DNA of 64,000 nt, taken from NCBI GenBank assembly GCA_028710985.1, contig JAQTTB010000001.1:19280-83279 (forward strand), in the 5' to 3' direction. Both the position numbers and the translations under genes were made by a program. The notes below the pieces were generated by a model, which had not been told where the DNA came from, did not search any database, and was given only the letters and a program-made list of their open reading frames with translations. The first letter of the stretch is position 1. Every line of letters starts with the position of its first letter. Of the stretch, positions 2,706 to 61,469 are shown in pieces. The stretch is from Patescibacteria group bacterium. Its GTDB lineage: Bacteria; Patescibacteriota; Patescibacteriia; JAHJFT01.

Positions 2706-3326
2706 TTAGTTATTATTAATAAATGAAAAATTATATAAAACGTTATCGAAAATATCTTGAGAATCTTCGTTCAAAACCCGACTAATTAAATCAACCGACC
2801 ACAATTCGCCGTTCCTCAGGACAAATGCGCTCTGGATTACCGACCCGCCTTCCAAATCGGTTGAGGCTTGGATAATCACCGACGGCAAACCGCCGAGCGC
2901 CGCCGGATGGCGCGCGATGAGTGCATAGCTCGGATCGGATGATATATTCTGATTTAAATATTCGCTCACGTATTCATCGAGCCCTAAATCGGTCGTCACT
3001 TTACCCACCACGAGCCGCAAACCTCTCTCCCCCCGTTCCGGGGTCGTATTTGGATCCCAACTCGTGAATACCAAAAAATCCTCTTCTTGACCCTCAAACC
3101 ATTTGGACGGATGCTTAAATGAAATACTCTGATTTTTATAGCTCACAAATTCAATCGGTTCGAGCTCTTCAGATGGTTCCGAAACCGGCGCCTCGACGGA
3201 CAGGGGGGCCGGCAGCGTCTCCATGGCCGGCTCAAGGCGTGATTTTTGGAAAAAATAAAGACCCAGCGCCATGGCCAAAGCCAGGACGACGATGAATATC
3301 ACTCCGGCTCGTTCCGATCCTTTCAT
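2706..3326 (-). CDS. hypothetical membrane-anchored protein (single N-terminal TM, acidic extracytoplasmic domain)
   Basis: ORF of 206 aa with N-terminal hydrophobic helix VIFIVVLALAMALGLYFF. No recognisable catalytic motifs. Confidence 0.5.
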   Translation of the reverse strand: MKGSERAGVIFIVVLALAMALGLYFFQKSRLEPAMETLPAPLSVEAPVSEPSEELEPIEFVSYKNQSISFKHPSKWFEGQEEDFLVFTSWDPNTTPERGERGLRLVVGKVTTDLGLDEYVSEYLNQNISSDPSYALIARHPAALGGLPSVIIQASTDLEGGSVIQSAFVLRNGELWSVDLISRVLNEDSQDIFDNVLYNFSFINNN

Positions 3327-3406
3327 AATGCATATATTTTATCATAAAACACCGCTATCGCATATACGCAATGGCGGTGTTTATTTATTTCGTATTTATC
3401 TATTAT

Positions 3407-4876: not shown

Positions 4877-4899
4877 GAGAGGGGTTGATATGTTAAAAT

Positions 4900-4972
4900 A
4901 GCTTGTAGGAAGTAGCTTGTAGCTTGTAGGACGCGACCTATTAAGATCCTACAAGCTACAAGCTACAAGCTA
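4900..4972. repeat. large inverted repeat built from heptamer triplets (AGCTTGTAG x3 / CTACAAGCT x3) ending 3 nt before the ATG of the 4975 gene
   Basis: Left arm agcttgtaggaagtagcttgtagcttgtagga and right arm tcctacaagctacaagctacaagct flank a 15-nt loop cgcgacctattaaga. A possible TTGTAG-N16-TATTAA promoter is embedded in it. Confidence 0.6.
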
Positions 4973-9439: not shown

Positions 9440-9590
9440 CCTTGTTTGGTTTAGTCAAAAGTTAAAAGTCAAAAGTCCAAAGTCAAGTCTAAAATTTTTT
9501 AGTCCAATCTCTCCAGCTGAATGTATCTATAACTTTTTGACTTTTAACTCAACTTTTAACTTTAGACTTTAGACTTTTAACTACAAAACA
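9440..9590. repeat. long imperfect inverted repeat made of AAAGTC/TAAAAGT-type short repeats, located between two co-directional GT genes
   Basis: Left arm agtcaaaagttaaaagtcaaaagtccaaagtcaagtctaaa. Right arm ctttttgacttttaactcaacttttaactttagactttagacttttaac. Confidence 0.6.
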
Positions 9591-9593
9591 AAC

Positions 9594-10712
9594 CTACCAA
9601 AATATAATTAGTCGTGCAATTAAAAAATAAAGATTAAACAACGGATTAGCGATTTTAAGCGCCCAATTATTAATTTCCTGATACTCAATCTTCCCTGTGA
9701 AATGACGAAGCACTTCTTTATCCCCGATACTTCTCGCGCGCGCGATTCTCGCGTGCTTGACGAAGAGATACGGCCAGTGCCACGGCGCGATCATCCAAAG
9801 ATATGCCTTAAGCTTCTCGCGCCACCAGCCGGACTTGATGGAAAAAATAAACTGCCCGAGCTCCATCGCGAGAAAGGCCGGCAGAAACACGAGCTGGGTC
9901 AGAAATTTATAATCGCAAAAATATAAAATAAAACGATTTCGCTCCATCCAGTAATATTTTGAAATACTCCGGCTGAATTCATATTCGTGATACACAACCG
10001 ACCGCGGCGCGAGCACGTTCACGAACCCGCCAAGCCGGAGCCGCCAGCCCAGATCCAGGTCTTCGTGATACGCAAAAAGTTTTTCATCAAAAAGCCCGGC
10101 ATCGCGCAAGGCGCCGATCTTGTATAAAACCCCGGCTCCGGAGCCGTAAGCAATTTCCGGAAGCCCGATAAAATCGCGTTCGCTCCGCGCCGCGCGCGAA
10201 CCGCCGCAAAATCCGAATCCCAGATAATGAATCATGTTGCCCGACGAATTAATGAGTCCGCGCTCGGGCCAGAGCGCGAGCAGAGACTGCACCGAACCGA
10301 TTTTCTGATTTGATTCCGCCGCATCGACGGCATGGCGCAAAAAATCCGGCTCAACCCGCGTATCGTAATTTATTAAATAAACATAATCAAAACCCTGCAC
10401 CTGCCTGCCGGTAGGCAGGGCCATTGCATACTCAATCGCGCGGTTGTTTCCGCCGGCAAAGCCGAGATTCGTGTTCATGGGCATAAAGTGAATCTTCGGC
10501 AGCCCCTGGGGCGGCGACTGCATTATCTCCAGAATGCGCTCGCGCGACCCGTCGGTTGACGCATTGTCAACAATAACAAGCTCAACCGCCTCCCGCGGAT
10601 AATCCAAGAGCGCGAGCGATTCAATCCAGGCATCTAAAAAACGCCGCGCCTTCCAGAGCACGGCGATAATTGCCACTCGTTTTACATCCTGATTATTCAT
10701 GCTTTTTTGCAT
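9594..10712 (-). CDS. glycosyltransferase family 2 with C-terminal membrane extension
   Basis: VAIIAVLWKARRFLDAWIESLALLDYPREAVELVIVDNASTDGS is a GT2 signature with a DxD region. The start is chosen at MQKSMNN (10712), giving a 20-nt overlap with the upstream DUF2304-like gene. The ORF track's 10838 start would give a 146-nt overlap. Confidence 0.7.
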   Translation of the reverse strand: MQKSMNNQDVKRVAIIAVLWKARRFLDAWIESLALLDYPREAVELVIVDNASTDGSRERILEIMQSPPQGLPKIHFMPMNTNLGFAGGNNRAIEYAMALPTGRQVQGFDYVYLINYDTRVEPDFLRHAVDAAESNQKIGSVQSLLALWPERGLINSSGNMIHYLGFGFCGGSRAARSERDFIGLPEIAYGSGAGVLYKIGALRDAGLFDEKLFAYHEDLDLGWRLRLGGFVNVLAPRSVVYHEYEFSRSISKYYWMERNRFILYFCDYKFLTQLVFLPAFLAMELGQFIFSIKSGWWREKLKAYLWMIAPWHWPYLFVKHARIARARSIGDKEVLRHFTGKIEYQEINNWALKIANPLFNLYFLIARLIIFW

Positions 10713-11037
10713 CTTCACTCTTCTCTCCCACCGCGATTTCGCGGGTAATTTTTGTGATATTTTTTTCGATTGACTGAATTTTAATGAATATTCTGAACGC
10801 GAGATAAAATAACAGCACGATTGAAAGATATGTCGCAAGATCCGCGCCGCGCTCGACTCCGAACCAGGCCGCCGCCACGTCGGTTTTCTTTGGGATTACC
10901 GCCGCCGCGCTGACCGCAATCCAAAACAAAAGCCAAACCGCGAGCCATCCGGCGGTAATGTCTTTTGATCGGTACTTGCGGAACGCTCTCCAGGCCGCAA
11001 TCGCCGCAAATAATATAATAACCGCTTGAATTATCAC
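10693..11037 (-). CDS. small membrane protein, DUF2304-like (commonly paired with GT2 in CPR-type glycosylation modules)
   Basis: 114 aa with three hydrophobic helices and a charged C-terminal tail. Located between two GT2 genes. Confidence 0.55.
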   Translation of the reverse strand: MIIQAVIILFAAIAAWRAFRKYRSKDITAGWLAVWLLFWIAVSAAAVIPKKTDVAAAWFGVERGADLATYLSIVLLFYLAFRIFIKIQSIEKNITKITREIAVGEKSEDAKKHE

Positions 11038-11705
11038 AAAAATTTATTTAATAAATAATCCCAGACTATTTTTAACGAGCCGAGCGATCTCTGTCCTTTC
11101 GCCAGGCTTTCCGGCGTGTATTTAACCGTTACCGGCACTTCGACATATCTTAATTTGTTCCTTCCGATTTCGTCAAGAATTTCCGAAGCGTGAGCCATTC
11201 TGTCCTGGGTAATTTTAATCTTCTCGGCCGCCTCACGGCTCAATGCGCGGAATCCGTTATGCGTGTCTGTGACCCTAAGCCCGGAAGTCAAACGGGTAAA
11301 AATTATACCACCCATAAGCACGAGCTGGCGCAAAGCCGGCACATTGGATTTTTTTCCCAAAAACCGCGAGCCCAGCGCCACATCCGCCCCGCCAAGAATA
11401 ATCGGCTTCACCATCTCGTCAATCTCTTCGGCCAGATGCTGGCCGTCAGCATCATAATGCACGATAATATCCGCGCCCAGGCTCCGGAGAGTGAATTCGG
11501 TACCCGTGGCAAGAGCCGCCCCCTGTCCACGGTTAATCACGTGACGCAGTACCACCGCTCCGGCCGTTCTTGCGACTTCAGCCGTCGCGTCGGTTGAACC
11601 GTCATCAACAACTACGGCGGCATCAATATGCGGCTTTATATCTTCTATGACTTTCGTGATAGAAGCCTCCTCGTTGTAAGCTGGTATTACTGCTACTATT
11701 TTCAT
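11034..11705 (-). CDS. glycosyltransferase family 2, dolichyl/polyprenyl-phosphate sugar synthase-like (DPM1-like)
   Basis: MKIVAVIPAYNEEASITKVIEDI...VVDDGSTDAT...DADGQH are GT2-A motifs. Soluble, 223 aa. Confidence 0.8.
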   Translation of the reverse strand: MKIVAVIPAYNEEASITKVIEDIKPHIDAAVVVDDGSTDATAEVARTAGAVVLRHVINRGQGAALATGTEFTLRSLGADIIVHYDADGQHLAEEIDEMVKPIILGGADVALGSRFLGKKSNVPALRQLVLMGGIIFTRLTSGLRVTDTHNGFRALSREAAEKIKITQDRMAHASEILDEIGRNKLRYVEVPVTVKYTPESLAKGQRSLGSLKIVWDYLLNKFL

Positions 11706-11729
11706 AAAACTACTTTCGCATCAATATTA

Positions 11730-11962
11730 TCGTCATTCCCGCGAAGGCGGGAATCCAGAAACAGTATACCTTGCGGATTCGATTTATAAACTGTCACACA
11801 AATCACTCCAAAGCGGATTGCAGTCTTCAATGAATTTAATCTTTTAGACCCTTTCCACTTATTGGAGGATGCAAATATAGAACTGCCGATAATCGGACAT
11901 AGCATAAATAAGTAGCCCCGAGATTAATTGGTTGTGGATTCCCGCCTTCGCGGGAATGACAG
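11730..11962. mobile_element. MITE-like 233-bp element with 26-bp terminal inverted repeats of the REP-like palindrome CGTCATTCCCGCGAAGGCGGGAATCC
   Basis: cgtcattcccgcgaaggcgggaatcc at 11730..11755 and its reverse complement ggattcccgccttcgcgggaatgac at 11936..11960. The interior is non-coding and AT-rich. The only ORF across it, 11702..11905, is the typical LDSRLRGND translation artefact of this palindrome. Confidence 0.6.
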
Positions 11963-11964
11963 TT

Positions 11965-12978
11965 CTAAATCCCAACCAACCCCTTCTGCACCCTTGAAAA
12001 ATCAATCGTCTTTTGAAGGCCCTCCTCAAGCCGCACGAGCGGAATCCAGTCTAGCCTCTCTTTGGCTTTGGTGATATCCGGAAGCCCAAGTTCGGTCATG
12101 AAAAGAAGCGGGGGTTCATGTTTGATTTCCGAGGATGAATTCACCATGGCGATTATTTTCTTTGCCACGTCGGCGAGCAGGAAATCCTGGTCCGATCCGA
12201 GATTCACGGGCCCGATATCCGCCGGCGCCTGCATCAGGCGCTTCAGCCCGTCAACAATATCCGAGACAAAACACAGGCTTGTTTTAAAACTTTCATCGCC
12301 GTAAATAACCAGTTCTTTGCCGTCAAGCGCGTCGGTGATAAAATCCGGTATCATCTGGCCGTCAAAAAGTTTCATGCGCGGCCCGTAGGTGCGGAAGATA
12401 CGCGCAATTTTCGCGTCGATCCCAAAAACTTGACTATAAGTCGCGACCATTGCTTCAGCGAAGCGCTTTCCCTCATCATAACAGGCGCGAGGCGAAATGG
12501 TTGAAACCCCGCCGATTTCATCTTCCCGAAAAGAAAGATGCTCTTCTTTGCGCCCTCCATAAATTACCGAACTGGATGTAAAGAGAAATTTTGCTTTGTA
12601 CTTCACCGCGATATCCAGGGCGTGCCTTGTTCCGACCGAGTTGGAAAGCGCGGTCTGCAGCTTAAATTCATCAAATCGTTTCGCCGATGTCGGACAGGCC
12701 AGATGATAAACTTCCTGAATTCCCTGAAAACGCAATTTGAACCTCTCAAGCTCGGGAAATGATTCCAGATCAAACGGTTCGTTGGTATCCAGCCGCAGAA
12801 ATTCAAAATCCGGATTCTGCATCAACCGGTCAATGTTTGATTCCGAGCTCGTCACAAAATTATCAATACAAATAACCTTGGCTTCATCCAAAAGCGACTC
12901 GCAGAGGTGTGAACCGATAAATCCGGCCCCGCCGGTGACAAGCACATTTTTCTTCTCAAATATGGGCGAAATTGGCAT
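11965..12978 (-). CDS. NAD-dependent epimerase/dehydratase, UDP-glucuronate decarboxylase (UXS)-like
   Basis: VLVTGGAGFIGSHL Rossmann motif. Short-chain dehydrogenase YxxxK region. 337 aa. Confidence 0.75.
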   Translation of the reverse strand: MPISPIFEKKNVLVTGGAGFIGSHLCESLLDEAKVICIDNFVTSSESNIDRLMQNPDFEFLRLDTNEPFDLESFPELERFKLRFQGIQEVYHLACPTSAKRFDEFKLQTALSNSVGTRHALDIAVKYKAKFLFTSSSVIYGGRKEEHLSFREDEIGGVSTISPRACYDEGKRFAEAMVATYSQVFGIDAKIARIFRTYGPRMKLFDGQMIPDFITDALDGKELVIYGDESFKTSLCFVSDIVDGLKRLMQAPADIGPVNLGSDQDFLLADVAKKIIAMVNSSSEIKHEPPLLFMTELGLPDITKAKERLDWIPLVRLEEGLQKTIDFSRVQKGLVGI

Positions 12979-13096
12979 AATTTTTGTATTTATTTTATCA
13001 AGTTTATATGTATATTTTAGACGAAATCACGCTTTTTGGCAAGGAGCGAGAATAATAATAAAACGAGCCGATTAAAGCCCGCTTTGTTCCATTGTT

Positions 13097-13552
13097 CTAT
13101 TGTTTTATTGTTCTCTTAAAAATGAATATTTTCTGAAAAAAGAAATTAATAAAATAGAGAATGGCATACACCACAAATTTTGCCGCCACGTCCCAGATTC
13201 CGAGGTAATGCACCGTGACAAACAGCAGGCCTTCGCCGATCAAAAAAACCACAAGCGCGTTAATCCAATAAACCGCATACTGCCTGACCACGCGCTTATC
13301 CGTATCGCCGAAAGTATAAGTCTTGTTAAACCAATAACCCACGATCGCGCCGAGCGTCATGCTCACAAAATTCGCCAAAAGATAATGTATGCCGAAAATT
13401 TTTGTGAGCAATAGATACGTCCCAAAATCAACGCCGGTCGCCCCGGTCCCCACGATCGTGAACCGCCACAGCTGTTTGATGGTTTGAAAAAGATTTGATT
13501 TTTGAGATATATTTTTGAGATTTGAGATTTGAGATTTGAGATTATCTTCCAT
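13097..13552 (-). CDS. GtrA family membrane protein (putative polyprenyl-phosphate-sugar flippase component)
   Basis: FTIVGTGATGVDFGTYLLLTKIFGIHYLLANFVSMTLGAIVGYWFNKTYTF is a GtrA-like four-helix core. The N-terminal 20 aa are encoded by a 7-bp x4 repeat. The true start may be an internal TTG. Confidence 0.65.
   Translation of the reverse strand: MEDNLKSQISNLKNISQKSNLFQTIKQLWRFTIVGTGATGVDFGTYLLLTKIFGIHYLLANFVSMTLGAIVGYWFNKTYTFGDTDKRVVRQYAVYWINALVVFLIGEGLLFVTVHYLGIWDVAAKFVVYAILYFINFFFQKIFIFKRTIKQ
13515..13542. repeat. perfect tandem repeat TTGAGAT x4 (7-bp unit) at the 5' end of the GtrA CDS, inside the GtrA/WbaP divergent promoter region
   Basis: ttgagat ttgagat ttgagat ttgagat, preceded by a degenerate tttgaga copy at 13501. 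Read directly from the sequence. Confidence 0.9.
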
Positions 13553-19178: not shown

Positions 19179-19847
19179 TCAGTTACACCGCACCACGGCC
19201 CATATTTCCCCCCAATTTATTTTGTAATCCGATATAGACATTCCGGCTGAATTCAGCTCTTCGGAAAAGTCATTAAAAGTATATTCAATAAAATGATTCC
19301 GATCCAATCGATATTCAAGTCCAAGCTCTTTTTTATACGGCACTAACCAATCCCGATTAATCATCGGCACGCGTATTAAAGCGATATCGCAAATATTTTT
19401 TATTTGCTTTAAAAGAGAAGTCCTATCATCTATATGCTCCAGTACATTAGATACTACGACGCGATCAAATTTTTCATTAAAACTATACTGTGTCGCATCG
19501 GCGACAATATATTCAACGTTTGGCAACGCGCAGTGCGATTTTGCATACTCAATACTGGTTTTATTCATATCAATCCCCACGACTCTTTTGGCCTTTTTGG
19601 CAATCTCGCGGGTCAAAATACCATTACCGCAGCCAATATCAAGGACGGTGTGCGATGGCTCGATATTATTTAGAAAAAAATCGTGATATTCAGTGAGGCG
19701 ATGCTTTGGATGTATCCCCCCCTCTCGCAATGAAGCGACCGTGACAATTTTATGCAATGCCCAATCGTGCAAATAAAATAATCGCCTCAGGATCCAGAGG
19801 GATAAATTTTTATTTTTAAACGCTCTTTTTAATAAATCCTTTAGCAT
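19179..19847 (-). CDS. class I SAM-dependent methyltransferase
   Basis: VLDIGCGNGILTREIA is SAM-binding motif I. 222 aa. Confidence 0.7.
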   Translation of the reverse strand: MLKDLLKRAFKNKNLSLWILRRLFYLHDWALHKIVTVASLREGGIHPKHRLTEYHDFFLNNIEPSHTVLDIGCGNGILTREIAKKAKRVVGIDMNKTSIEYAKSHCALPNVEYIVADATQYSFNEKFDRVVVSNVLEHIDDRTSLLKQIKNICDIALIRVPMINRDWLVPYKKELGLEYRLDRNHFIEYTFNDFSEELNSAGMSISDYKINWGEIWAVVRCN

Positions 19848-43021: not shown

Positions 43022-43023
43022 GC

Positions 43024-43265
43024 ATCAATAAAATCCCTCTCTGCCTCTCCCTTCCTGCCTGCCGGCAGGCAGGTTGCATACTTTTGGTTACAAAAGTATG
43101 TCCTGCTGAAAGCAAACAAGAGTGGTGCTAGAAAAGATAATTATTGCCCAGACAGGTGGCAGGCAAGAACTTAAAAATCCCAATATTAAAACAACTTGTA
43201 CGATAATATATAATAGGATTCCCCCGGTACATTGAACCTGGATTCCCGCCTTCGCGGGAATGACA
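43024..43265. repeat. copy A of a ~215-240-bp intergenic repeat, containing the perfect palindrome CCTGCCTGCCGGCAGGCAGG, the hairpin CATACTTTTGgttaCAAAAGTATG, and a terminal REP-like palindrome (43240..43265)
   Basis: Near-identical to 56987..57199. The palindrome is at 43054..43073 and the hairpin at 43077..43100. Confidence 0.8.
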
Positions 43266-43369
43266 AAAGTAAGGCAGGAATGACAAATGGCGCTAAGATT
43301 TTTATAGCAAGATTCCCGCCGGAGCCTGCCCTCATGCAAATGGGGGGGGTGGCTAAAAATATCGTCAAC

Positions 43370-43412
43370 CAAAAAACCACTCCGACGTTACGTCGAAGTG
43401 GTTTTGAATTTT
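43370..43412 (-). terminator. rho-independent terminator for the Wzy_C/TPR gene (minus strand)
   Basis: Minus-strand transcript reads AAACCACTTCGACGtaaCGTCGGAGTGGTTTTTTGG. Confidence 0.6.
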
Positions 43413-43416
43413 AATC

Positions 43417-45660
43417 TTATTGCCCCGCCTTCGCTTCTTTCTCGTCAATCATTTTCAGAAACTCATCCGTATCCGCGGATATTGAGGGATCCAACTGTTT
43501 GGCAATATTCGCGTACAACCGCGCGAGCTCATACTCCCCGACTTCAAAATATGCCGCCGCAATACCGGCATATAACCGCGGATCGTTTTCATCAATATTG
43601 TCAATCGCAAAATTATAAAGTTCAATCACCCTCGGCATATTGCCGGCTTTAGCATTAAGTTCAACCATCGCCGCCACTTCCGGAAGATTTACCGGATGTC
43701 CGCCGATTGATGCCGATTTTTCAAATGCCTCAAGTGCTTTATCTTCCCACTCGGCCTCATAGTATGCAATACCTAAATTCCACCATGACTCCGTGACATT
43801 GGGATCGAGGTTCACTGTCTCCAGATAATACTGGACAGCCTCATCGGTGCGGCCAAGATTCAAGAGCGCCTTACCGCGCACAAAACGCAACTGCTGACGA
43901 TCGGGAGAATACCTTAGCGCCTCATCAATGTCCGCGAGCGCCTGTTCATGGTGCGTCGGATCAATCTTACCAAGCTCGAGCTGAATCAAGCTCATGAGAT
44001 AATAATTATATATATTCATGGGATGAAGCGGCACAGTTGCCTTTAGCGCATCGTATGATCGCTCAAGATACTCAGCGAGCTCATCGCTTGGCATTTGCAT
44101 TGAGCGGCTAATTTGCGCCATCTCTCGGCTATAGTAAAGAGGAACCAAATCCGGATATTGGTTTGAGATAGCCATGCCTTTTTCAAATGCTGCGGCCGAA
44201 CCTTTATAATCCCCTGCCTGTGACGCAATCACTCCGCTCCGCACCCAGGTGGAAGCAAACGCGGTCCGAAAAGTAAATAAATACAAAACCGCAAACGAAA
44301 AAATTATCAAGACCGCGAGCCACGCTCCGGCAACGGCTGGAGTATTGATAAACAATCTTCCCTCTTTTTTCGGTTCGGTTGTCTCGCTCTGCCACCAGGC
44401 CAGGCAGAAATAAAACATAATCAATGCATTCGGCTGGTCAAAGATAAAAAGATTTTGCACGAAATATCCGATCAGAATTCCAATTGAGCCGCAATAAATA
44501 TGGGTATCGATTTTACCGCCCTTGAAGGCTTTGGTGAGCTGAATGATTATGAGAGCGAATAAGGCGAGATATGCCGCCGTACCGACCACGCCCGTATTAT
44601 TCAGCATATCCATCATCTGGTTATGCGCATGGTCAAACCATGTTTCGTAGAACGAAAACTCCAGTGACTTTGGATTGTAGTATTTATTGAAAGTATAAAA
44701 ATAATTTTCCGGACCCCAACCAAAAACCGGACGCTCCAAGAATCCCTTCCACGCGATTTCCCAAGCAATAAAGCGCGTCGCCGCCGTGCCACCGGTTAAC
44801 GAAATATCTCGGAAGCGATTGAGGCCGGGAACCTGCGCGGTCCAGGCCTGATCTTTAATCAGCCAAAATCCAGCCGACGCAAGGATTATTGCCAAAAATA
44901 TACCCGCGGAAATTATGCGGATCTTTTTATTATTTTTAAGTATTGCGTAAAGCGCGAGATACACGAGCCCGGCGAGAAAAACTCCAACCATTGCGCCGCG
45001 TGTTTCGGCGAAAAGAAAAGCCAAGAACTGTATTGCGAGCATGGCTCCCCACATTGCCTTGGTTGACCACCGCACGGCTTTTTGCAGAAGAACGAGCGTA
45101 ATGAACATAGTGAAAATCAAATACGCAGCCAAGAAAATCGGATTATTCATAAACGCGCCGGTACGAGCGCCGGTTTGCAGCACCAATTCCGGCGCCACGC
45201 GCTGGATAAAAGCGACAAACGACAGCGCCACGCTCACACCCACATTGAAAATTAAAACTTTTTTCCATTCGCGCCAGCCGCGGAAAACCGAAATTGCCAT
45301 AAAATAAAACAGGAGATAATGGAGAAGCGGCCAAAAACCGGTCATACGTTCGTGATAACTCCAGAAGCTGCGATTCGAATCAACGCCAAAAATCACGGCT
45401 AAAAAAAGTCCGATGAAATACGCCGCAAGCCCGTACATAATAAGCGACCGCCGCGGCCGGTATTCCGGCTTGCGCGCGAGAAGATATATATACCACGGCA
45501 ACGCGCTCATGAGCACGATCATAAGATAGACCGTCTTGCCAAAAATATACGGGTAAACCGTCCATGGCAAAAAAATAAACGGCATCACGAGAGCCGCATA
45601 TACGCTAATTTTTACCCACCAATATGCGATGCGGTCCATTGTTTCAAGATTGTTATTCAT
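43417..45660 (-). CDS. O-antigen ligase (Wzy_C) family membrane protein with C-terminal TPR repeats, a candidate O-oligosaccharyltransferase (PglL/WsaB-like)
   Basis: About 12 TM helices with a large extracytoplasmic loop, typical of Wzy_C. The C-terminal roughly 250 aa contain TPR-like repeats (AYYEAEWEDKALEAFEKS, GRTDEAVQYYLETVNLDP). Confidence 0.65.
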   Translation of the reverse strand: MNNNLETMDRIAYWWVKISVYAALVMPFIFLPWTVYPYIFGKTVYLMIVLMSALPWYIYLLARKPEYRPRRSLIMYGLAAYFIGLFLAVIFGVDSNRSFWSYHERMTGFWPLLHYLLFYFMAISVFRGWREWKKVLIFNVGVSVALSFVAFIQRVAPELVLQTGARTGAFMNNPIFLAAYLIFTMFITLVLLQKAVRWSTKAMWGAMLAIQFLAFLFAETRGAMVGVFLAGLVYLALYAILKNNKKIRIISAGIFLAIILASAGFWLIKDQAWTAQVPGLNRFRDISLTGGTAATRFIAWEIAWKGFLERPVFGWGPENYFYTFNKYYNPKSLEFSFYETWFDHAHNQMMDMLNNTGVVGTAAYLALFALIIIQLTKAFKGGKIDTHIYCGSIGILIGYFVQNLFIFDQPNALIMFYFCLAWWQSETTEPKKEGRLFINTPAVAGAWLAVLIIFSFAVLYLFTFRTAFASTWVRSGVIASQAGDYKGSAAAFEKGMAISNQYPDLVPLYYSREMAQISRSMQMPSDELAEYLERSYDALKATVPLHPMNIYNYYLMSLIQLELGKIDPTHHEQALADIDEALRYSPDRQQLRFVRGKALLNLGRTDEAVQYYLETVNLDPNVTESWWNLGIAYYEAEWEDKALEAFEKSASIGGHPVNLPEVAAMVELNAKAGNMPRVIELYNFAIDNIDENDPRLYAGIAAAYFEVGEYELARLYANIAKQLDPSISADTDEFLKMIDEKEAKAGQ

Positions 45661-45661
45661 A

Positions 45662-47620
45662 TTATTTTATTTCAACGGCATTAATATTGTCAAAAACGCC
45701 ACTGATAAAGCGCAGATTAATTTTATTATTATAAATTTCCGCGATGGCGATTCTCACCTCTCCGACAATATAGTCATAAAATGCTTTCAAGTCAAACTGA
45801 TTCGCCTGCGTCGCCCAGTTTGCGCTGCGGAGGAACGCGCCATTCCGATCGAATGATTTTATATATATATTTCCGTCTGTTTTATAAGTAACCAGTATCT
45901 CTTCTTCTTCGCCCGTATCCAAATTTTGCGTCGCAACGAATATTGGCCCCGTGATTTTCTCTGCCGCTTGAAAATTTGAAACCAAGACGCCACTCTTCCT
46001 AAATATCTTAATATGCAAAACACCGGCATCAATAAATCCCACGATTATTTCATCCGTGTCATCGGCATCAATATCTCCAGCCGTGACCGTAACGCCGCCG
46101 CGAAAACCAGAAGTATACGCCATAAAATTACCCTGAATTTCCCCTCTTTCATTAAACACTAGTATATGCGGACCGCCGCCCGGACCCGGCGCGGTGATAA
46201 TTTCATCGTTCACCGTCCGGCTGTCCACATTTCCGACGGCGATATTCACGCCACCGCGGAAAAGCGAATTATACGCAAAAAATTGTCCGTACAATTTCCC
46301 TGTCTCGCTAAAAATACGCACCTGCGGACCGCCGCCCGGACCCGCGCCGACCACAATTTCTTTTTGACCGTCATTATTTACGTCGCCGCTCTGAGCCGTG
46401 AACCCCTTTTTGAAACTATCCGGAAACACCGCGAAGCTATCTTTGACTTCCCCGCCGCTCCCAAGCTCACGGACAACCGGCGTAAAACCAAGCGGCGCAC
46501 CGATTACAAGCGATGAACCGCTCTTTGCCGCTTCAAGCGCCAACTCAAGCGCAGCGCGCGCATCCACGCGCGTTCCCAAGCCTCCGGCAAAATCCGGATT
46601 GATCCCGTCAATTATCACGCCGCTTTTTACCAAAATTTCATTGATTTCACGAGCCGAGAGCCCGGGCGCGATTGATTTCACGAGTGCGGACACGCCGGAA
46701 ACAATCGGCGCCGCAAACGAAGTGCCCGACCAATCGTCATCATAGAATGTATCAAAATCCGCAATTGCCGAGTTATAAACACGCGCGCTCCATATATCCA
46801 TGCCCGGTGCCGAAACATCAACGCAGGCTTTGCCAAAATTTGAAAATTTCGCTTTTTGATCCAACGTGTCGGTTGCCGCGACTCCAAGTACGTATATTTC
46901 ATTCTCATATTGATCAATGCACACCGGAAATTCATCGTACATATCCAAGTTCGAGCCGCCCGATTCGTCCGGCGTATTGCCGGCCGCCGCCACTACTACT
47001 ACTCCCGCTTCCCAGGCGCGGCGCACCGCAGTTGACATATCCTCGCTAAAATTAAAACCTACAAAACTCAAATTAATCACATCCGCACCATTTCGAATGG
47101 CGTAATAAATCGCTTTTGCCACATTGTCCGAGAATCCGTTACCCGTGGCATCGAGCACCTGAAGCGGCATTATCTTGCTCTCCCAGGTGATTCCGGCCAT
47201 GCCGTTCCGATTATTCCCTTCGGCTGCGATGATGCTCGCCACCGCCGTGCCATGGCTAATTCCCTCTTCCGCATATCCGTTGGAAAAATTCGGCAATATA
47301 TTTCCGTTATTATCCGAGAAATTCCATCCATTCACATCATCAATATAATCATTCTTATCATCATCGATTCCGTTTGCCGGAATTTCATCTTCATTGATCC
47401 AAGCATTGCCATCCAATTCCGGATGCGAAATATCCACGGCCGTATCAATCACTGCGACAATCACCTTCGGACTGCCGGTCGAAATATCCCAGGCGCGTTC
47501 GGCATCAATCTGACGCAAATACCACTGACGCGAAAAATCCGTATCGTTTGGGGTGAAAGCCTGCGCGCCTTGAACCGCAACGAATACAAAAATTATTGTG
47601 CAGAATATAAACTTTTTCAC
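45662..47620 (-). CDS. S8 family serine peptidase (subtilase) with signal peptide and C-terminal FG-GAP/VCBS-like repeats
   Basis: Catalytic triad contexts VIDTAVD, HGTAVASIIAA and GTSFAAPIVSG. Repeated DxDxDG...GGGPxxxxF modules. Confidence 0.85.
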   Translation of the reverse strand: MKKFIFCTIIFVFVAVQGAQAFTPNDTDFSRQWYLRQIDAERAWDISTGSPKVIVAVIDTAVDISHPELDGNAWINEDEIPANGIDDDKNDYIDDVNGWNFSDNNGNILPNFSNGYAEEGISHGTAVASIIAAEGNNRNGMAGITWESKIMPLQVLDATGNGFSDNVAKAIYYAIRNGADVINLSFVGFNFSEDMSTAVRRAWEAGVVVVAAAGNTPDESGGSNLDMYDEFPVCIDQYENEIYVLGVAATDTLDQKAKFSNFGKACVDVSAPGMDIWSARVYNSAIADFDTFYDDDWSGTSFAAPIVSGVSALVKSIAPGLSAREINEILVKSGVIIDGINPDFAGGLGTRVDARAALELALEAAKSGSSLVIGAPLGFTPVVRELGSGGEVKDSFAVFPDSFKKGFTAQSGDVNNDGQKEIVVGAGPGGGPQVRIFSETGKLYGQFFAYNSLFRGGVNIAVGNVDSRTVNDEIITAPGPGGGPHILVFNERGEIQGNFMAYTSGFRGGVTVTAGDIDADDTDEIIVGFIDAGVLHIKIFRKSGVLVSNFQAAEKITGPIFVATQNLDTGEEEEILVTYKTDGNIYIKSFDRNGAFLRSANWATQANQFDLKAFYDYIVGEVRIAIAEIYNNKINLRFISGVFDNINAVEIK

Positions 47621-53702: not shown

Positions 53703-53999
53703 ATGTCTTCATCCATTCGCTTATCCGTATCCGAAGCCGCCCGGCTTTTTGGCATTAGTGAAAAAACCCTGCGCCGCGCCATCATTAATAAGGAAATCAA
53801 CTATATCGTGGTTGCCGGCCGGTACAAGCTAAATTTTGAAAGCCTGGTCAAGTGGTCCCAGCAAAAAACCACGGTGCGCCGCAAATCCGAAAAATACGGC
53901 ATCGACCAATTTGTGGATAAATGGCGCCTCTCCGCCACCCTCTACTCCCCCAACCCACCCGCCACGGAACAAGAGAACAATTCAACAATACAACAATAG
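53703..53999 (+). CDS. small helix-turn-helix DNA-binding protein (excisionase-family HTH)
   Basis: SVSEAARLFGISEKTLRRAIINKEINYIVVAGRYKLNFESLVKW matches the XIS/MerR-like HTH pattern. 98 aa. Confidence 0.6.
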   Translation: MSSSIRLSVSEAARLFGISEKTLRRAIINKEINYIVVAGRYKLNFESLVKWSQQKTTVRRKSEKYGIDQFVDKWRLSATLYSPNPPATEQENNSTIQQ

Positions 54000-54061
54000 A
54001 ACGACCTATAAAAAAACAAGCGTTTTACCTATGCTTGTTTTTTTGTTGTATTGTTGAATTG
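53978..54061. terminator. nested bidirectional terminator: a 19-bp perfect outer inverted repeat (CAATTCAACAATACAACAA / TTGTTGTATTGTTGAATTG) enclosing an inner AACAAGC-loop-GCTTGTT hairpin flanked by an A-run and a T-run
   Basis: Outer arms at 53978..53996 and 54043..54061. Inner hairpin at 54015..54039. The left arm encodes the last residues of the HTH protein. Confidence 0.65.
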
Positions 54062-54074
54062 TTGCGTTGTCCGC

Positions 54075-55664: not shown

Positions 55665-56699
55665 ATGAAGAACTCCAGGATAGTGCTGATTCTCTGCGCC
55701 CTGGTACTGATGGCCTGCGAGACGAGGTACGTGGACGTGGGCGGCGAGCCCGACACCTCCATCGACACCGCGTCCGACAGCGTGGAGCTCTGCTCCGACG
55801 GCCTGGACAACGACATGGACGGCCTGGTCGACTGCAACGACAACGACGGCGACGAGAACTGCCCGCCGTGCGCGGACGCGTCAACCGACGCCGTGGCCGA
55901 CGAGATCGAGGACAGCGCAGAAACCGACGTCCCGCCCGTGGAGCTCTGCTCCGACGGCCTGGACAACGACTTCGACGGACTCGTGGACTGCAACGACGGG
56001 GACGACTGCTGCGATGAAGCAGTGTGCGTTACGAGCGAGCACTGCGCTTCGGAAGACGCTTCAAGCGACTCCGAAGAGGAAGCCGACGCAGTCTCCGACT
56101 CGGGTGCGGATTCGGATCCCGCCGAGGACCCCGTGCCTGACACTGATCCCGACACCGCCTCCGACCCGGATAGCGCAAGCGATCCGGACGCGGTCTCTGA
56201 CCCGGACGTGGTGGACGCCGAAGCCGACGCAGCTGACATCCTCCACTCCGGCCTGGCCACGTTCAAGTGGTGCCGGCCCATGACCATGGCGCGCCCCGAC
56301 CACATTCTCGCGGAATGCTTTGTCTGGGGAAGCCTCTATGAAAGCTGGGATGACTCCTGGGAGCTGGCAACCGGCTCTCCGGACTTCGTCGCACCGGCCG
56401 ACAGCGACTGCATCGAGTTCACCCTGCCAGATCTGGATTACACGCTCCTCGGAATAAGCGTAGAGTGCAACATCACTGCCTATTCCGACTCGGCGTACGG
56501 GCCGTGGGGACGCATCTACGCTCTCGGCGAGTGCACGTGCGGCGGCAGCTGTGTCGTAAAAGGCACGCTTACCGTCCGTTCCGGTCCCGACGCTGATGAC
56601 GCAACCGCCTTGGATCTCACGAGCCTAGTCGTGCAGAATCCGCGATGCGCGTCCCTGAGCGACCAGGCCGGCAACTACGTCCTCTCACCTATTCCATAG
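55665..56699 (+). CDS. secreted acidic lipoprotein with thrombospondin type-3-like calcium-binding repeats (high-GC compositional outlier)
   Basis: Strong RBS GAGGAGG 7 nt upstream of the ATG at 55665. Lipobox LVLMAC. Two repeats: [27 protein letters not shown] and [22 protein letters not shown]. Poly-(DPD[ST]AS) tract. GC above 60%. The ORF track's longer start at 55488 was rejected. Confidence 0.6.
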
Positions 56700-56718
56700 G
56701 GGGTTCGTCTCTCCCCAT

Positions 56719-56768
56719 GGGCAGGATAAGCAAGGTCCCCCCCTACCTTGCCCCTGCCCGCCTTTTTT
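56719..56768 (+). terminator. first stem-loop plus T-run after the lipoprotein gene
   Basis: GGGCAGG ...(26 nt)... CCTGCCC gccTTTTTT. Confidence 0.4.
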
Positions 56769-56805
56769 CAGCGAATCATGCAAATGATTCATTGAAAAAA
56801 GGCAA

Positions 56806-56845
56806 AAATAAAAAACGCCCCGTGTTTACCGAGGGCGTTTTTTTG
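56806..56845. terminator. rho-independent terminator (bidirectional character)
   Basis: aaaaaaCGCCCcgtgtttaccgaGGGCGttttttt. Confidence 0.65.
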
Positions 56846-56986
56846 TGCATCTTAGTCAGAACATGGGGTTCGGGGGCGCAACTGAGCATGGCGCTAGGAA
56901 GCAGTGAATTGCCTATTTGCCGAGAGCGAACCCGCCTGCCAACGCCTGGCGTAGGCCTGGCGGGCAGGTTTGCGACCCCGAAACTT

Positions 56987-57199
56987 CCTGCCTGCCGGCA
57001 GGCAGGTTGCATACTTTTGGTTACAAAAGTATGTCCCGCTGAAAGCGAACAAGAGTGATGCTAGAAAACAATAATCAATACCCAGACAAGCGGCAGGCTG
57101 TGGCTAGAAAATCCCAATATTAAAACAACTTGCACGAAAATATTTAATAGGATTCCCCCGGTACATTGAACCTGGATCCCCGCCTTCGCGGGGATGACG
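56987..57199. repeat. copy B of the ~215-bp intergenic repeat (palindrome at 56987..57006, hairpin at 57010..57033, REP-like palindrome at 57174..57199)
   Basis: Same orientation as copy A at 43024..43265, with an almost base-for-base match: cctgcctgccggcaggcaggttgcatacttttggttacaaaagtatgtcc(c/t)gctgaaagc... then ...taataggattcccccggtacattgaacctgga. Confidence 0.8.
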
Positions 57200-57247
57200 A
57201 AGAGAGCACTTTGCCACTTACCGTCATTCCCGCGAAAGCGGGAATCC
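57174..57247. repeat. inverted pair of REP-like palindromes (GGATCCCCGCCTTCGCGGGGATGACG, 24-nt spacer, CGTCATTCCCGCGAAAGCGGGAATCC) forming a ~28-bp-stem hairpin
   Basis: Units at 57174..57199 and 57222..57247. The second is followed by agaaaca, as at 11756. Confidence 0.8.
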
Positions 57248-57261
57248 AGAAACAAAGCCCC

Positions 57262-57385
57262 TCCAAAATCCCTCTCTGACACGTCGCTCGCGAGCGACGT
57301 GTCTCTGTCTCCCCCTTCCTGCCTGCCGGCAGGCAGGTCAGCCACCCCGAAACTTTTTGGTTACTTTTTGGTTACAAAAAGTAAC
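57262..57385. repeat. partial third copy of the intergenic repeat (palindrome CCTGCCTGCCGGCAGGCAGG at 57318..57337 and hairpin GTTACTTTTTGgttaCAAAAAGTAAC at 57360..57385)
   Basis: aaaatccctctctg...ctcccccttcctgcctgccggcaggcagg matches 43030..43073. Confidence 0.7.
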
Positions 57386-57458
57386 GCGCCGGAGGCAAGA
57401 GACCAGAGGTAAAAAGATGCAAGAAAAAAATGGGAGGCCCAAACGATTGTAGGAGGAA

Positions 57459-57490
57459 CAAAAAGACGTGCCTTTAAGCACGCCTTTTTA
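57459..57490. terminator. bidirectional rho-independent terminator downstream of gene 57499..59394
   Basis: aaaaagaCGTGCctttaaGCACGccttttta. Confidence 0.55.
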
Positions 57491-57498
57491 TAATATTT

Positions 57499-59411: not shown

Positions 59412-61469
59412 TTATTTAATCATGGACAATGTAAAAACCCCGGTTGTCTCGGCGATAATCTCATCGCGTCCATCATTGTCAATATCCGTCGCCGCAACGC
59501 CGACTCCGGAATTATCGTGCACATCATAAGCAAAAAATCCGCCGCCGTCGAGCGCCTGCCCTTTTTCGTTGAACACGCGCACATGCGGACCGCCGCCCAG
59601 GCCCGGACCAGTGATTATTTCATCCGCGCCATCGCCATCCGTATCCCCGGCCGCGACATTCACTCCGCCACGAAAATTTTTATCATAAGCGAAAAATCCC
59701 GGATTGATCAGGCGTCCGTCCAGCCCAAAAACGCGCACATGCGGACCCCCGCCGACTCCGGCTCCGGCAATTATCTCTTTCCAGCCGTCGCCGTTCAAAT
59801 CTCCGATCGTCACATTCACCCCGCCACGAAAATTTTTATCATAAGCGAAAAATCCCGGATTGATTAAAACGCCATCGCGGTTAAAAATTCTAATTTGCGG
59901 ACCGCCGCCATTTTCCGTTCCGGTGACGATTTCCATAAAACCATCCTTGTCCAAATCTCCGGCTGTGATATTTATGCCACCGCGATATTTATCCGTATAG
60001 GGATAGAACTGGGCATGCACCTTGCCGGAGGCATCATAAATCGTCACGCGATTTATATCACCGACCACGGTTTCGTCCTGACCGTCACTATTCAAGTCAG
60101 CAATCGCCACATTACTTCCGCCCCGGTAATCCGCTTCGTAGGCAAAAAAACCGGTGCGATAAACTTCGCCGTAACGGTTGAATATTCTTACAAAACTTCC
60201 GTTTGTGAATGTCGTGTTGGCAATTTTTTCGATCGGCCGAATCAGCACAATGCCGTCGCGCGGCGCGACAACTGTGCCGCTCACGATGGACCCGTCGTTT
60301 TTTTTCGGATCCTGGACACCGTGAATTTTTTCATATTCTCCAAAAAATTCGGTTGACTGGTTGCTGTAAGTAGAATTCACCAGCACCAAGCCGTTTTGAA
60401 ATTCGCGCTTCCACAAACCCTCCATTAAATCCGAACCGGAAGAAGTGAGGTTTTCCGCCGGACCCTTGGGAGCGCCGAGATATGCACCGTATTCATCATA
60501 CCACCAGGTTTGGCCGTGATCCTGGTCACCGAAATCAAAACTGTAATATCCGTCAAAAAGCATAGCGCTCGTATAACCGAAACGCATTGTCTTGTAATCA
60601 TTCTGGCTGCCGGTATTGTTCGTATTGGAATTTAGAATATTGGACGATGGCTGCTGCGATTCCGTGACGGCATCGCGGTAGTTTTTAAGCGCGTACGTCC
60701 AATCTTTGCTCGAAAAATTCTCAACCGTCACACCGTCGGTATGGTTTGCGTAATACGGGCCATCATTCAGCATCACGAGATATTTGGAGCCAATCGCACT
60801 CGCGGTTGCATCTAATGCTTTCGCGATTCCTTCTTTCCACAGGCGATTTGCGTCGCTTGATCCCGCCGGCTGACCGTCGCGGTTAAAATCAAGATTTCCG
60901 CCGGCAAAATATGTTACATCCTCCCAGCCATTATCAAAAAAAACACCATCCCATTTTCCCGAAGCGATAATTTCATTCTTAACAAAACTCGGCAAATAAT
61001 CATTCCAGCGTTGACCGGCAACCGAAAGGCATTCGTTCGTGATATTCATTATCCAATTGCCCTGCCAGAATGATCTTTTGTTTCCGGATGTATCAACGAG
61101 GTACCATTCATTTTTAATTCCCTGGGCCAATTTACGCCGCAGCGAACTTGAGGCCAGGCCGTCAATACTTTGTCGCACTTCAACGAGCGGAATATAAGCG
61201 AATATTTTTATATCCGGATTGATTCGCCTCATCGTGTCAATGGCGGAGGGATTGGATGTCTGGATATCCATGTCCAAAATCACCACATCCCATTCTGCAA
61301 GATCTCGCGCCTTGTCGTCTGCCACGCTCCAATGCAAAAAAATATTGGCCAACCGCGGCGCGTCCGTATTCAAAGGCGCACTTGCCGCCAAACCAGGCCA
61401 ACTAATAAATATAATTAACAAAATAAAAAAGCCTTGAACCCAAAACTTTAATTTACGGAGAATTTTCAT
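59412..61469 (-). CDS. secreted protein with an N-terminal TIM-barrel glycoside-hydrolase-like (GHL) domain and C-terminal FG-GAP/VCBS repeats
   Basis: Signal peptide beginning at MKILRKLKFWVQGFFILLIIF. The start is chosen at 61469; the ORF track start of 61574 adds 35 non-signal residues. Seven or more DxDxDG...GGGP(H/Q)VRVF modules. A 156-bp tandem duplication lies inside. Confidence 0.55.
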   Translation of the reverse strand: MKILRKLKFWVQGFFILLIIFISWPGLAASAPLNTDAPRLANIFLHWSVADDKARDLAEWDVVILDMDIQTSNPSAIDTMRRINPDIKIFAYIPLVEVRQSIDGLASSSLRRKLAQGIKNEWYLVDTSGNKRSFWQGNWIMNITNECLSVAGQRWNDYLPSFVKNEIIASGKWDGVFFDNGWEDVTYFAGGNLDFNRDGQPAGSSDANRLWKEGIAKALDATASAIGSKYLVMLNDGPYYANHTDGVTVENFSSKDWTYALKNYRDAVTESQQPSSNILNSNTNNTGSQNDYKTMRFGYTSAMLFDGYYSFDFGDQDHGQTWWYDEYGAYLGAPKGPAENLTSSGSDLMEGLWKREFQNGLVLVNSTYSNQSTEFFGEYEKIHGVQDPKKNDGSIVSGTVVAPRDGIVLIRPIEKIANTTFTNGSFVRIFNRYGEVYRTGFFAYEADYRGGSNVAIADLNSDGQDETVVGDINRVTIYDASGKVHAQFYPYTDKYRGGINITAGDLDKDGFMEIVTGTENGGGPQIRIFNRDGVLINPGFFAYDKNFRGGVNVTIGDLNGDGWKEIIAGAGVGGGPHVRVFGLDGRLINPGFFAYDKNFRGGVNVAAGDTDGDGADEIITGPGLGGGPHVRVFNEKGQALDGGGFFAYDVHDNSGVGVAATDIDNDGRDEIIAETTGVFTLSMIK
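59657..59863. repeat. intragenic tandem duplication (156-bp period; 51-bp near-identical cores at 59657..59707 and 59813..59863) within the FG-GAP region
   Basis: attcac(t/c)ccgccacgaaaatttttatcataagcgaaaaatcccggattgat occurs twice. It is also visible as the repeated HSATKIFIISEKSRID / HPATKIFIISEKSRID stretches in the antisense ORF 59376..59867. Confidence 0.8.

Follow-up and report, generated by a model that had tools for sequence, protein, structure and literature searches.

What kind of element is a short palindrome that occurs five times within 64 kb of a Patescibacteria genome, closes both ends of a 233-bp non-coding element, and lies in DNA given over mostly to surface-glycan genes? 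The DNA in question, here called the window, is a stretch of 64,000 nucleotides (positions 19,280 to 83,279 of contig JAQTTB010000001.1, assembly GCA_028710985.1) from a metagenome-assembled genome (MAG) of the Patescibacteria, or candidate phyla radiation (CPR). An original prediction, made from the letters alone, described the repeat as resembling repetitive extragenic palindromes (REPs) or miniature inverted-repeat transposable elements (MITEs), with the architecture of the neisserial dRS3 repeats in a different lineage. The relation to dRS3 stands, but not on architecture alone: judged by its sequence, the window repeat goes beyond a likeness to dRS3 and belongs to the same family as the Neisseria Transformation Sequence (NTS) and the Ssn-related motifs (SRMs), and only the host, a member of the Patescibacteria, differs. 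This kind of repeat was already described in 2025 (Chenal et al., Nat Commun 2025, PMC11893778). The best explanation, which we hold with considerable confidence, is that an NTS/SRM module, the recognition site of an Ssn nuclease, has spread into the intergenic DNA of this Patescibacteria genome.

The NTS is a 28-nt oriented sequence, CGTCATTCCCGCGMAVGCGGGAATCYRG, that encompasses dRS3 in Neisseria, and about half of the neisserial dRS3 repeats are in fact 28-nt NTS; the NTS-like SRMs are found across bacteria, where they are spatially linked to ssnA, a gene encoding a 94-aa protein with a single GIY-YIG domain (cd10448), often in the arrangement NTS-ssnA-NTS (PMC11893778). SsnA binds the hairpin as single-stranded DNA (ssDNA) only and on the forward strand only, does not bind RNA, and cuts a few nucleotides 5' of the hairpin; the oriented flanks (GTC on the 5' side and a C directly after the palindrome) are critical, and the catalytic residues are Y6, Y17, and E64 (PMC11893778). 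This biochemistry was established for the Neisseria and Wolbachia enzymes, and in N. meningitidis the NTS together with SsnA reduces the integration of NTS-bearing transforming DNA about 5-fold (PMC11893778).

Identity and structure of the repeat

Copies were sought in the 64-kb window with the 25-mer GGATTCCCGCCTTCGCGGGAATGAC, allowing up to three mismatches and using 100 dinucleotide-preserving shuffles as control. Exactly five matches were recovered, as compared with none in the 100 shuffles (Table 1), and their coordinates lie within 2 nt of those originally predicted. Mismatches to CGTCATTCCCGCGMAVGCGGGAATCYRG number 0, 2, 1, 2, and 0 in coordinate order (0 hits in 100 shuffles), which places three of the five copies within the limit of one mismatch by which Chenal et al. 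define an NTS (PMC11893778). The SRM search pattern of the same authors, HGTCWYN(0-2)YYVSBRHN(0-5)WNVSBRGN(0-2)RNCYNB (PMC11893778), retrieves exactly these five copies from the window, against a mean of 0.08 and a maximum of 1 in 100 dinucleotide-preserving shuffles. The bare ATTCCC-N8-GGGAAT pattern, by comparison, is not enriched when two mismatches are allowed (6 matches versus 4.2 expected), so the signal is that of the full 25-28-nt unit rather than of the dRS3 pattern as such. In its strict form this core is exact in four of the five copies, a feature shared with dRS3; copy D departs from it (ATCCCC...GGGGAT) by two mismatches that amount to one compensated pair, a T>C / A>G change that preserves the stem.

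Each unit, folded as ssDNA, is predicted to form a hairpin with an 8-bp stem and a 4-nt loop (-8.9 to -9.7 kcal/mol; z = -3.4 to -4.2), as the original prediction had it. In every copy the stem is preceded by GTC and the palindrome is followed at once by C, and a (C/T)GTCAT head is found in all five and in 144 of 144 distinct 28-mers. In the alignment of these 28-mers, G2, T3, C4, and C25 never vary, pairing holds in 97.6% of stem cells, and compensatory double changes occupy 116 cells at three of the eight stem pairs, versus 32.5 in shuffles (0 of 500 reach the observed value). Covariation within the stem together with invariant flanks indicates that both the structure and its specific flanks are maintained. 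A profile of 160 instances shows conservation outside the 25-mer only at position -1 (C) and at +1/+2 (AG); these limits reproduce the 28-nt NTS.

The window repeats further resemble the published system in being intergenic (all five copies lie outside ORFs of 150 aa or more), multi-copy, and near surface-structure genes, and in having NTS-ssn-NTS cassettes in relatives that include CPR bacteria. They differ in their host, a member of the Patescibacteria with a contig of about 0.74 Mb, a group that goes without mention in the text of PMC11893778; in the lack of an ssn gene in the window; and in that one pair of copies bounds a 175-nt spacer.

Table 1. Positions of the repeat copies and of associated features in the window, with the UXS-GT2 spacers of orthologous lineages in the last row
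Feature	Position	Strand	Match to GGATTCCCGCCTTCGCGGGAATGAC (strand)	Remarks
Copy A, CGTCATTCCCGCGAAGGCGGGAATCCAG	11731-11758	+	11732-11756 (-)	0 mismatches to NTS; SRM match; hairpin -8.9 kcal/mol, z -3.8
Copy B, TGTCATTCCCGCGAAGGCGGGAATCCAC	11934-11961	-	11936-11960 (+)	2 mismatches to NTS (first, last base); SRM match; hairpin -9.4 kcal/mol
Copy C	43238-43265	-	43240-43264 (+)	1 mismatch to NTS; SRM match; hairpin -8.9 kcal/mol
Copy D, CGTCATCCCCGCGAAGGCGGGGATCCAG	57172-57199	-	57174-57198 (+, 2 mismatches)	2 mismatches to NTS, one base pair; SRM match; hairpin -9.7 kcal/mol
Copy E (GAAA loop)	57222-57249	+	57223-57247 (-, 1 mismatch)	0 mismatches to NTS; SRM match; hairpin -9.0 kcal/mol, z -4.2
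NTS right-half fragment, GCGGGAATCTTG	43308-43319	-		half-site scan, 2 mismatches
Whole inserted element	11731-11961 (231 bp)	-		inverted NTS doublet, 5' (GTCAT) ends outward
Spacer between inverted NTS copies	11759-11933 (175 nt)			non-coding
UXS-like gene	11965-12978	-		co-directional with GT2 gene, separated from it by the element
GT2 gene	11034-11705	-		
Promoter-like TTTATA-16-TATACT	11763-11790	-		in element, faces GT2; consensus scan, 9/12 matches
Composite mosaic repeat, copy 1	43049-43265	+		about 216 nt; ends in NTS copy C
Composite mosaic repeat, copy 2	56982-57199	+		ends in NTS copy D
UXS-GT2 spacer				window 259 nt; L004 11 nt; L005 3 nt; L126/L127 3 nt; L128/L129 37 nt

The spurious peptides that had been attributed to the repeat are correct translations of it. 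Read as GTC ATT CCC GCG AAG GCG GGA ATC CAG the unit gives VIPAKAGIQ, and the other strand, read as CTG GAT TCC CGC CTT CGC GGG AAT GAC, gives LDSRLRGND; SFPRKRESR is the translation of the GAAA-loop copy at 57222. A literature search on these peptides returned no relevant match; the link to Chenal et al. (PMC11893778) came from a full-text search with the DNA sequence of the unit. The identification made here ties an eye-catching repeat and the junk ORFs of the VIPAKAGIQ / LDSRLRGND / WIPAFAGMT type in metagenome annotations to the Ssn-NTS/SRM system. As a practical matter, the repeats fragment short-read assemblies, and masking them ahead of ORF calling is advisable.

An insertion in a conserved glycan operon

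Copies A and B form the termini of the 233-bp non-coding element that splits the UXS-like gene from the GT2 gene, as originally described. The arms (11732-11757 and 11935-11960) are identical over 26 nt, inverted, and enclose 175-177 nt; the whole element is predicted to fold with a closing stem of 26-28 bp. In gene orientation, the left terminus (copy B) starts 3-4 nt past the TAG stop codon of the UXS-like gene, and the right terminus (copy A) lies 26 nt upstream of the ATG start codon of GT2.

The comparison of filled and empty sites that had been proposed as a check was possible with four orthologous lineages, whose UXS proteins are 76-80% identical in amino acids to that of the window and which share the gene order Bac_transf, GtrA, UXS, GT2, DUF2304, GT2, GT4. 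All four are empty sites: their UXS-GT2 spacers measure 3-37 nt, versus 259 nt in the window, and SRMs are absent from their loci. No strain nearer to the host turned up with which the exact empty site could be compared. The C-terminus of the window's UXS-like protein is not truncated, as relatives of 337 aa end at the same column. These spacers, short and lacking an SRM, indicate that the element was inserted between formerly adjacent genes; on this comparison, the 233-bp element is an insertion into a conserved glycan operon. A search for flanking target-site duplications, also proposed, found no direct repeat at either side of the element (11731-11961), the flanks reading ...TTTAGAAC/T and G/ATAATATT.

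Within the spacer, an overlapping 67-aa ORF has no Pfam match, and a 22-mer has no exact match in Joint Genome Institute (JGI) metagenome contigs. The possibility that the spacer is a decayed ssn gene was rejected, as a six-frame search with a hidden Markov model (HMM) found no similarity to Ssn. Rfam returned no match for the whole window at the gathering threshold and, for the element at E <= 10, only chance-level matches (best E-value 0.5), among them FtrB at 20.6 bits versus a gathering score of 66 and P9 at 16 versus 43. The promoter-like sequence of the element is one of two such sites in the region, with 0.9 expected in the consensus scan; the element may supply a weak promoter for GT2. 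A terminator function was rejected, there being no terminator-like sites in 11500-12200 and no T-run after any copy.

Logan contigs from the same organism (L001 1-30, L002 1575-1608, and L003; SRR22315506, SRR22315508, and SRR22315509) end no more than 3 nt from the inner edge of the NTS. Their ends flank the 233-bp element on either side, and the interior is not joined in those assemblies. Contigs are expected to stop at the unit because its sequence is repeated in the sample.

Doublets and mosaic blocks

The repeat occurs singly, as inverted termini, and as an inverted pair, and its character as an intergenic family is confirmed in all three settings. The pair that had been noted at 57174..57247 is real: copies D and E (57172-57249) are separated by a 22-nt spacer with their 5' ends inward, opposite in relative orientation to the copies of the 233-bp element. 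Copies C and D each terminate one copy of a composite mosaic repeat. The first sits where a GT4 gene and a Wzy_C/TPR gene converge (gap 43022-43416); in it CCTGCCTGCCGGCAGGCAGG and CATACTTTTGGTTACAAAAGTATG, both palindromic, are followed by about 130 nt and then by the NTS. The two composite copies (43049-43265 and 56982-57199) are 85-96% identical, and the similarity stops about 3 nt from the 5' edge of the NTS. Additionally, copies A-D share a further, weakly conserved stretch of about 30 nt on the 3' side, which suggests that units extending beyond the core have been copied within the genome.

Such an arrangement is the style of organization of the neisserial intergenic mosaic elements (NIMEs), in which dRS3 repeats reportedly flank members of the neisserial RS families, and of bacterial interspersed mosaic elements (BIMEs). 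As in the NIMEs, the repeats flank or terminate other short blocks (here the 216-nt block and the 175-nt spacer) to form intergenic mosaics. The window differs in phylum. Neither the interior 22-mer nor the NTS-adjacent 28-mer of the 216-nt block has an exact match in JGI metagenome contigs; by this measure the 175-nt interior and the 216-nt block look private to the host lineage. A comparable embedding was observed in three Desulfobacterales / Thermodesulfobacteriota MAGs (L022, L026, and L029), where a conserved block specific to the lineage, TTCGTAAAAAGTC.AAAAC..., lies 5' of the NTS, so that the 28-nt core is embedded in larger, family-specific repeats, as in the window.

Pairing was surveyed in 120 listed genome loci and the window, comprising 230 SRMs, with neighbors taken within 600 nt. 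Among the 75 neighboring pairs, 57 have their 5' ends outward (+ then -), 7 inward (- then +), and 11 are direct (++ or --). Spacers of the outward doublets are otherwise 5-96 nt long, with a median of about 30, and the 175 nt of the window is the longest of the 57. Whole doublets are duplicated in an Omnitrophota genome (L082) and in a Wildermuthbacteria genome (L130), with similarity that ends at, or a few nucleotides beyond, the outer GTCAT ends. Doublets, MITE-like derivatives, and filled or empty sites are not described in the text of PMC11893778.

Other palindromes accompany the NTS copies. CCTGCCTGCCGGCAGGCAGG occurs three times (43054-43073, 56987-57006, and 57318-57337) and CATACTTTTGGTTACAAAAGTATG twice (43077-43100 and 57010-57033); further perfect palindromes, GACACGTCGCTCGCGAGCGACGTGTC and CCACTCCGACGTTACGTCGAAGTGG, cluster with the NTS copies as well (57279-57304; 43380-43404). 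These may represent further repeat families of the host genome.

Distribution across phyla and viruses

Searching GTDB species-representative genomes for the exact 25-mer (GAAR loop) identified at least 120 stretches, which, among the matches listed, represent more than 13 phyla. The listed hosts include Alpha-, Beta-, Gamma-, and 'Delta'-proteobacteria; Bacteroidota, Chloroflexota, Planctomycetota, Acidobacteriota, Nitrospirota, and Gemmatimonadota; and Zixibacteria, Omnitrophota, Bdellovibrionota, and Vampirovibrionales. Five CPR lineages are likewise among the matches listed (Paceibacteria, Parcubacteria, Saccharibacteria, Peribacteria, and 'Patescibacteria group'), as are isolates of genera named by Chenal et al. 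(Povalibacter, Devosia, Sphingomonas, and Rickettsia; PMC11893778). One AT-rich stretch with an NTS doublet, in a record titled 'MAG: Klebsiella pneumoniae' (L009; CAMAPQ010000003.1), looks out of place and may reflect a binning error.

In IMG/VR, at least 120 contigs of viral or proviral origin also carry the exact NTS 25-mer (L132-L251). An Ssn-like GIY-YIG ORF was found in 7 of the 120 listed viral loci (L150, L171, L187, L188, L198, L216, and L239), and in L188 it lies at 3057-3317 between inverted NTS copies (3005-3377). Viral contigs are a possible vehicle for the spread of the NTS across phyla.

NTS-flanked nuclease genes in relatives

CPR bacteria carry NTS-flanked GIY-YIG genes. One case is the protein MBI2642534.1 (P0177) of Wildermuthbacteria locus L130, which is 99 aa long and matches GIY-YIG (PF01541) only in Pfam; its gene is flanked on both sides by NTS-type hairpins, and an NTS supplies its last eight codons together with the stop. 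Read from the sequence, residues Y7, Y18, and E65 are spaced as are the catalytic residues of SsnA. Homologs with 77-82% identity occur, among the matches listed, in Sungiibacteriota, Pacebacteria, Parcubacteria, and Patescibacteria, and NTS-ssn-NTS cassettes are found in L061 and in viral locus L188 as well. Many of the Ssn-like homologs sit on contigs of 500-1000 bp, as is expected where flanking repeats break assemblies. NCBIfam and PDB sequence searches with the CPR Ssn-like protein returned only generic GIY-YIG relatives, such as UPF0213 and UvrC.

The surroundings of the Wildermuthbacteria gene (L130 4864-5473; Ca. Wildermuthbacteria, GCA_016186005.1) form a nest of hairpins, including the non-canonical variants GTCATTCCCAGCTTGACTGGGAATCC and GTCATTCCCAATTTAATTGGGAATCC, which the SRM regular expression misses, and on either side of the gene there is a copy of a 66-nt doublet.

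Proposed role

In the proposed mechanism, the module—5' (C/T)GTC, an 8-bp stem, a 4-nt loop, and 3' CCAG—would fold as ssDNA and serve as the recognition site of an Ssn of about 94 aa with a single GIY-YIG domain, which, by extension from the Neisseria and Wolbachia enzymes, would cut a few nucleotides 5' of the hairpin. By the same analogy, the window hairpins would be recognition and cut sites that a resident Ssn uses in the host organism. The copies at the ends of the 233-bp element point outward (+ at 11731, - at 11961), and the reported cut position therefore predicts cuts just outside each end, on opposite strands. The module appears to have spread in three forms: as a single copy ending a mosaic of about 216 nt, as a tight inverted pair, and as an outward doublet with a 175-nt spacer.

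If N. meningitidis is a guide, the copies probably mark positions where a resident Ssn would nick transient ssDNA, such as incoming transforming DNA or replication intermediates. Nicks of this kind would restrict recombination, or influence its course, around the flanked surface-glycan genes, including, we infer, those of the low-GC cluster around which copies lie. The converse idea, that the repeats are recombination hotspots that mediate cassette exchange, is unsupported and runs contrary to the sole experimental evidence, the lowered integration in N. meningitidis (PMC11893778). That the repeats bracket glycosylation genes is accurate as description, in that the 11.7-kb and 43.2-kb loci have a low-GC glycan cluster between them, but three loci are an anecdote rather than statistics. 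If transcribed, the doublet would as a by-product form an RNA stem of 26-28 bp just upstream of GT2.

Several points weigh against this explanation. Two of the five copies exceed the one-mismatch limit, and copy B has T in first place and C instead of G in last, near positions reported to matter for cleavage. No ssn or GIY-YIG gene or remnant was detected in the 64-kb window by tblastn, a GIY-YIG regular expression, or a six-frame HMM search, and none of 240 listed Ssn-like homologs (of more than 8000 matches) was traced to the source contig, of which the window is 9%. The assignment of the CPR GIY-YIG proteins to cd10448 is putative, resting on size, single-domain architecture, NTS flanks, and the spacing of catalytic residues. 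GIY-YIG nucleases, moreover, form no covalent DNA intermediate that would account for the multiplication of NTS copies.

With regard to spread, an IS-like NTS-ssn-NTS cassette accompanied by non-autonomous NTS doublets copied as units seems likely, and NTS-bounded units would be propagated by a nick-initiated process that leaves no duplication. The filled and empty sites and the orientation bias of doublets hint at mobile NTS-bounded units, whose mobility is only a hypothesis in the 2025 paper (PMC11893778). We suggest tentatively, and with more doubt than conviction, that outward doublets are non-autonomous mobile elements, the REPIN or MITE counterparts of the NTS-ssn-NTS cassette. If so, a GIY-YIG ssDNA nuclease would drive a new kind of duplication-free insertion, for example by nick-initiated copying at replication forks or during transformation, and phage-borne cassettes would explain an identical 25-mer in more than 13 phyla, ultra-small CPR genomes included.

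What is new here is modest: an NTS/SRM family in a Patescibacteria genome, an NTS-bounded insertion with filled and empty sites inside a conserved operon, a strong outward bias of doublets across phyla, and carriage of the motif on viral contigs. The Ssn-NTS/SRM system is thereby extended to the Patescibacteria. With their minimal genomes, these bacteria are believed to rely on the uptake of DNA; a device for ssDNA restriction or for shaping recombination beside a low-GC surface-glycan cluster would be biologically meaningful in such a host.

Alternative explanations

Since no ssn was found in the window and none of the listed homologs was traced to the source contig, the copies could be orphans, that is, relics from an ssn-bearing ancestor or from foreign DNA that persist as passive structures or homology sites in a genome lacking the cognate nuclease. 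Genomes of this kind exist, as 19% of those with more than 200 SRMs have no ssnA homolog (PMC11893778), and the isolated half-site at 43308-43319 is probably a decayed NTS copy. However, four copies match perfectly or nearly so and the remaining one retains its stem through a compensatory change, which points to recent spread or purifying selection; NTS-flanked Ssn-like genes are also common in CPR relatives, and most of the source contig lies outside the window. We regard orphan status as unlikely, though a serious contender.

A primary function at the RNA level is improbable. Under this explanation the hairpins would be terminators, stabilizers of mRNA 3' ends, or RNase III sites that tune the glycan genes, and the 233-bp element possibly a small RNA. 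Three copies do lie at the 3' ends of convergent genes, the 26-28-bp stem of the doublet RNA has a z of -5.9, the element contains the promoter-like site, and Correia elements in Neisseria are processed by RNase III. Against these stand the lack of a U-tract after any hairpin, the absence of terminator-like hits and of Rfam matches at gathering score, and an interior not found elsewhere in JGI metagenome contigs. Across phyla the GTC...C flanks, unpaired and oriented, are strictly conserved, which fits the site of a sequence-specific protein rather than a generic RNA hairpin. SsnA does not bind RNA (PMC11893778).

The resemblance to REPs, part of the original description, extends to several features, but a REP/REPIN origin, in which palindromes are mobilized by a RAYT (an IS200/IS605-type Y1 transposase) and inverted doublets are REPINs, is very improbable. 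REPINs and REP-BIMEs are reportedly associated with RAYTs, and RAYT-associated REPs are said to have a GTAG head; the window repeats have (C/T)GTCAT instead. Like REPs, the repeats of this family are short, GC-rich extragenic palindromes that form ssDNA hairpins acted on by a small nuclease encoded between two copies, with inverted doublets as the frequent duplicated or replicating unit, mosaic clusters, and no target-site duplication; the analogy is also drawn by Chenal et al. (PMC11893778). The enzyme, however, is GIY-YIG rather than HUH/Y1, without a covalent intermediate: the gene between NTS copies in L061, L130, and L188 encodes a GIY-YIG protein and not a Y1 transposase, and no Y1 transposase is among the approximately 45 window ORFs scanned with Pfam. 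Moreover, REPs are normally lineage-specific, whereas the 25-mer is identical across more than 13 phyla among the matches listed.

The description as MITE-like holds for architecture only. A classical MITE would be a deletion derivative of an insertion sequence with a DDE transposase, similar to Correia elements (CREE), with the 26-nt arms as terminal inverted repeats (TIRs). Correia elements are about 100-150 bp long, with a TA target-site duplication and non-palindromic 26-nt TIRs. The window element shares with them the form of a small, TIR-bounded, non-coding insertion in an operon, with a long hairpin if transcribed and promoter-like sequences, and its perfect inverted termini, non-coding interior, and filled site as compared with the empty site of relatives are what a MITE would show. 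Yet there is no target-site duplication and no transposase in the window, each 'TIR' is itself a hairpin that also occurs singly and in the opposite pairing, and the same 25-mer is found across phyla with unrelated flanks; this origin is very unlikely indeed. It is scarcely credible that the hairpins are attachment sites for integrating elements, for although filamentous Nf/MDA phages of Neisseria integrate into dRS3 via a Piv/IS110-type recombinase (precedent cited in PMC11893778) and the exact NTS is carried by the IMG/VR contigs described above, no recombinase or phage genes lie beside any copy in the window and a 175-nt interior is far too small for an integrated element.

Genomic setting and other repeats

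The UXS-like protein is 100% identical to MDD4994877.1, encoded on a contig of 744,538 bp, which identifies the host as a Patescibacteria (CPR) MAG, and its nearest relatives are Uhrbacteria-like CPR. Genes of the window are mostly those of surface glycans: GT2 and GT4 glycosyltransferases, a Wzx-like flippase, methyltransferases, AsnB, epimerases, and a Wzy_C/TPR protein. Copies A and B lie between the UXS-like and GT2 genes, copy C in the convergent gap described above, and copies D and E in a second convergent gap (56700-57498). No transposase, integrase, or Y1/RAYT domain was detected among the approximately 45 ORFs of the window scanned with Pfam, and the window contains no tRNAs.

A block from 16 to 42 kb has a GC content of 0.35-0.42, versus about 0.5 elsewhere in the window. 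This block (16000-42000) encodes the Wzx-like flippase, many GT4 and GT2 proteins, S-adenosylmethionine (SAM) methyltransferases, AsnB, and epimerases; it lies between the 11.7-kb and 43.2-kb NTS loci, with the Wzy_C/TPR gene at 43417-45660, and may be a horizontally acquired glycan island.

Other intergenic gaps contain long inverted repeats of short, low-complexity periods (9442-9600, 4899-4972, 53969-54070, and 13086-13117). The periods are CAAAAGT-like, TAGCTTG-like, and ACAAT-like, and an ACAAT-type arm is present at two loci 41 kb apart. Direct repeats with a period of 156 nt occur inside large ORFs at 46142-46363, 55781-56004, and 59572-59933, which encode an FG-GAP/S8 peptidase, an unannotated protein of 403 aa, and a GHL15/FG-GAP protein; these look like protein-domain repeats that are unrelated to the NTS.

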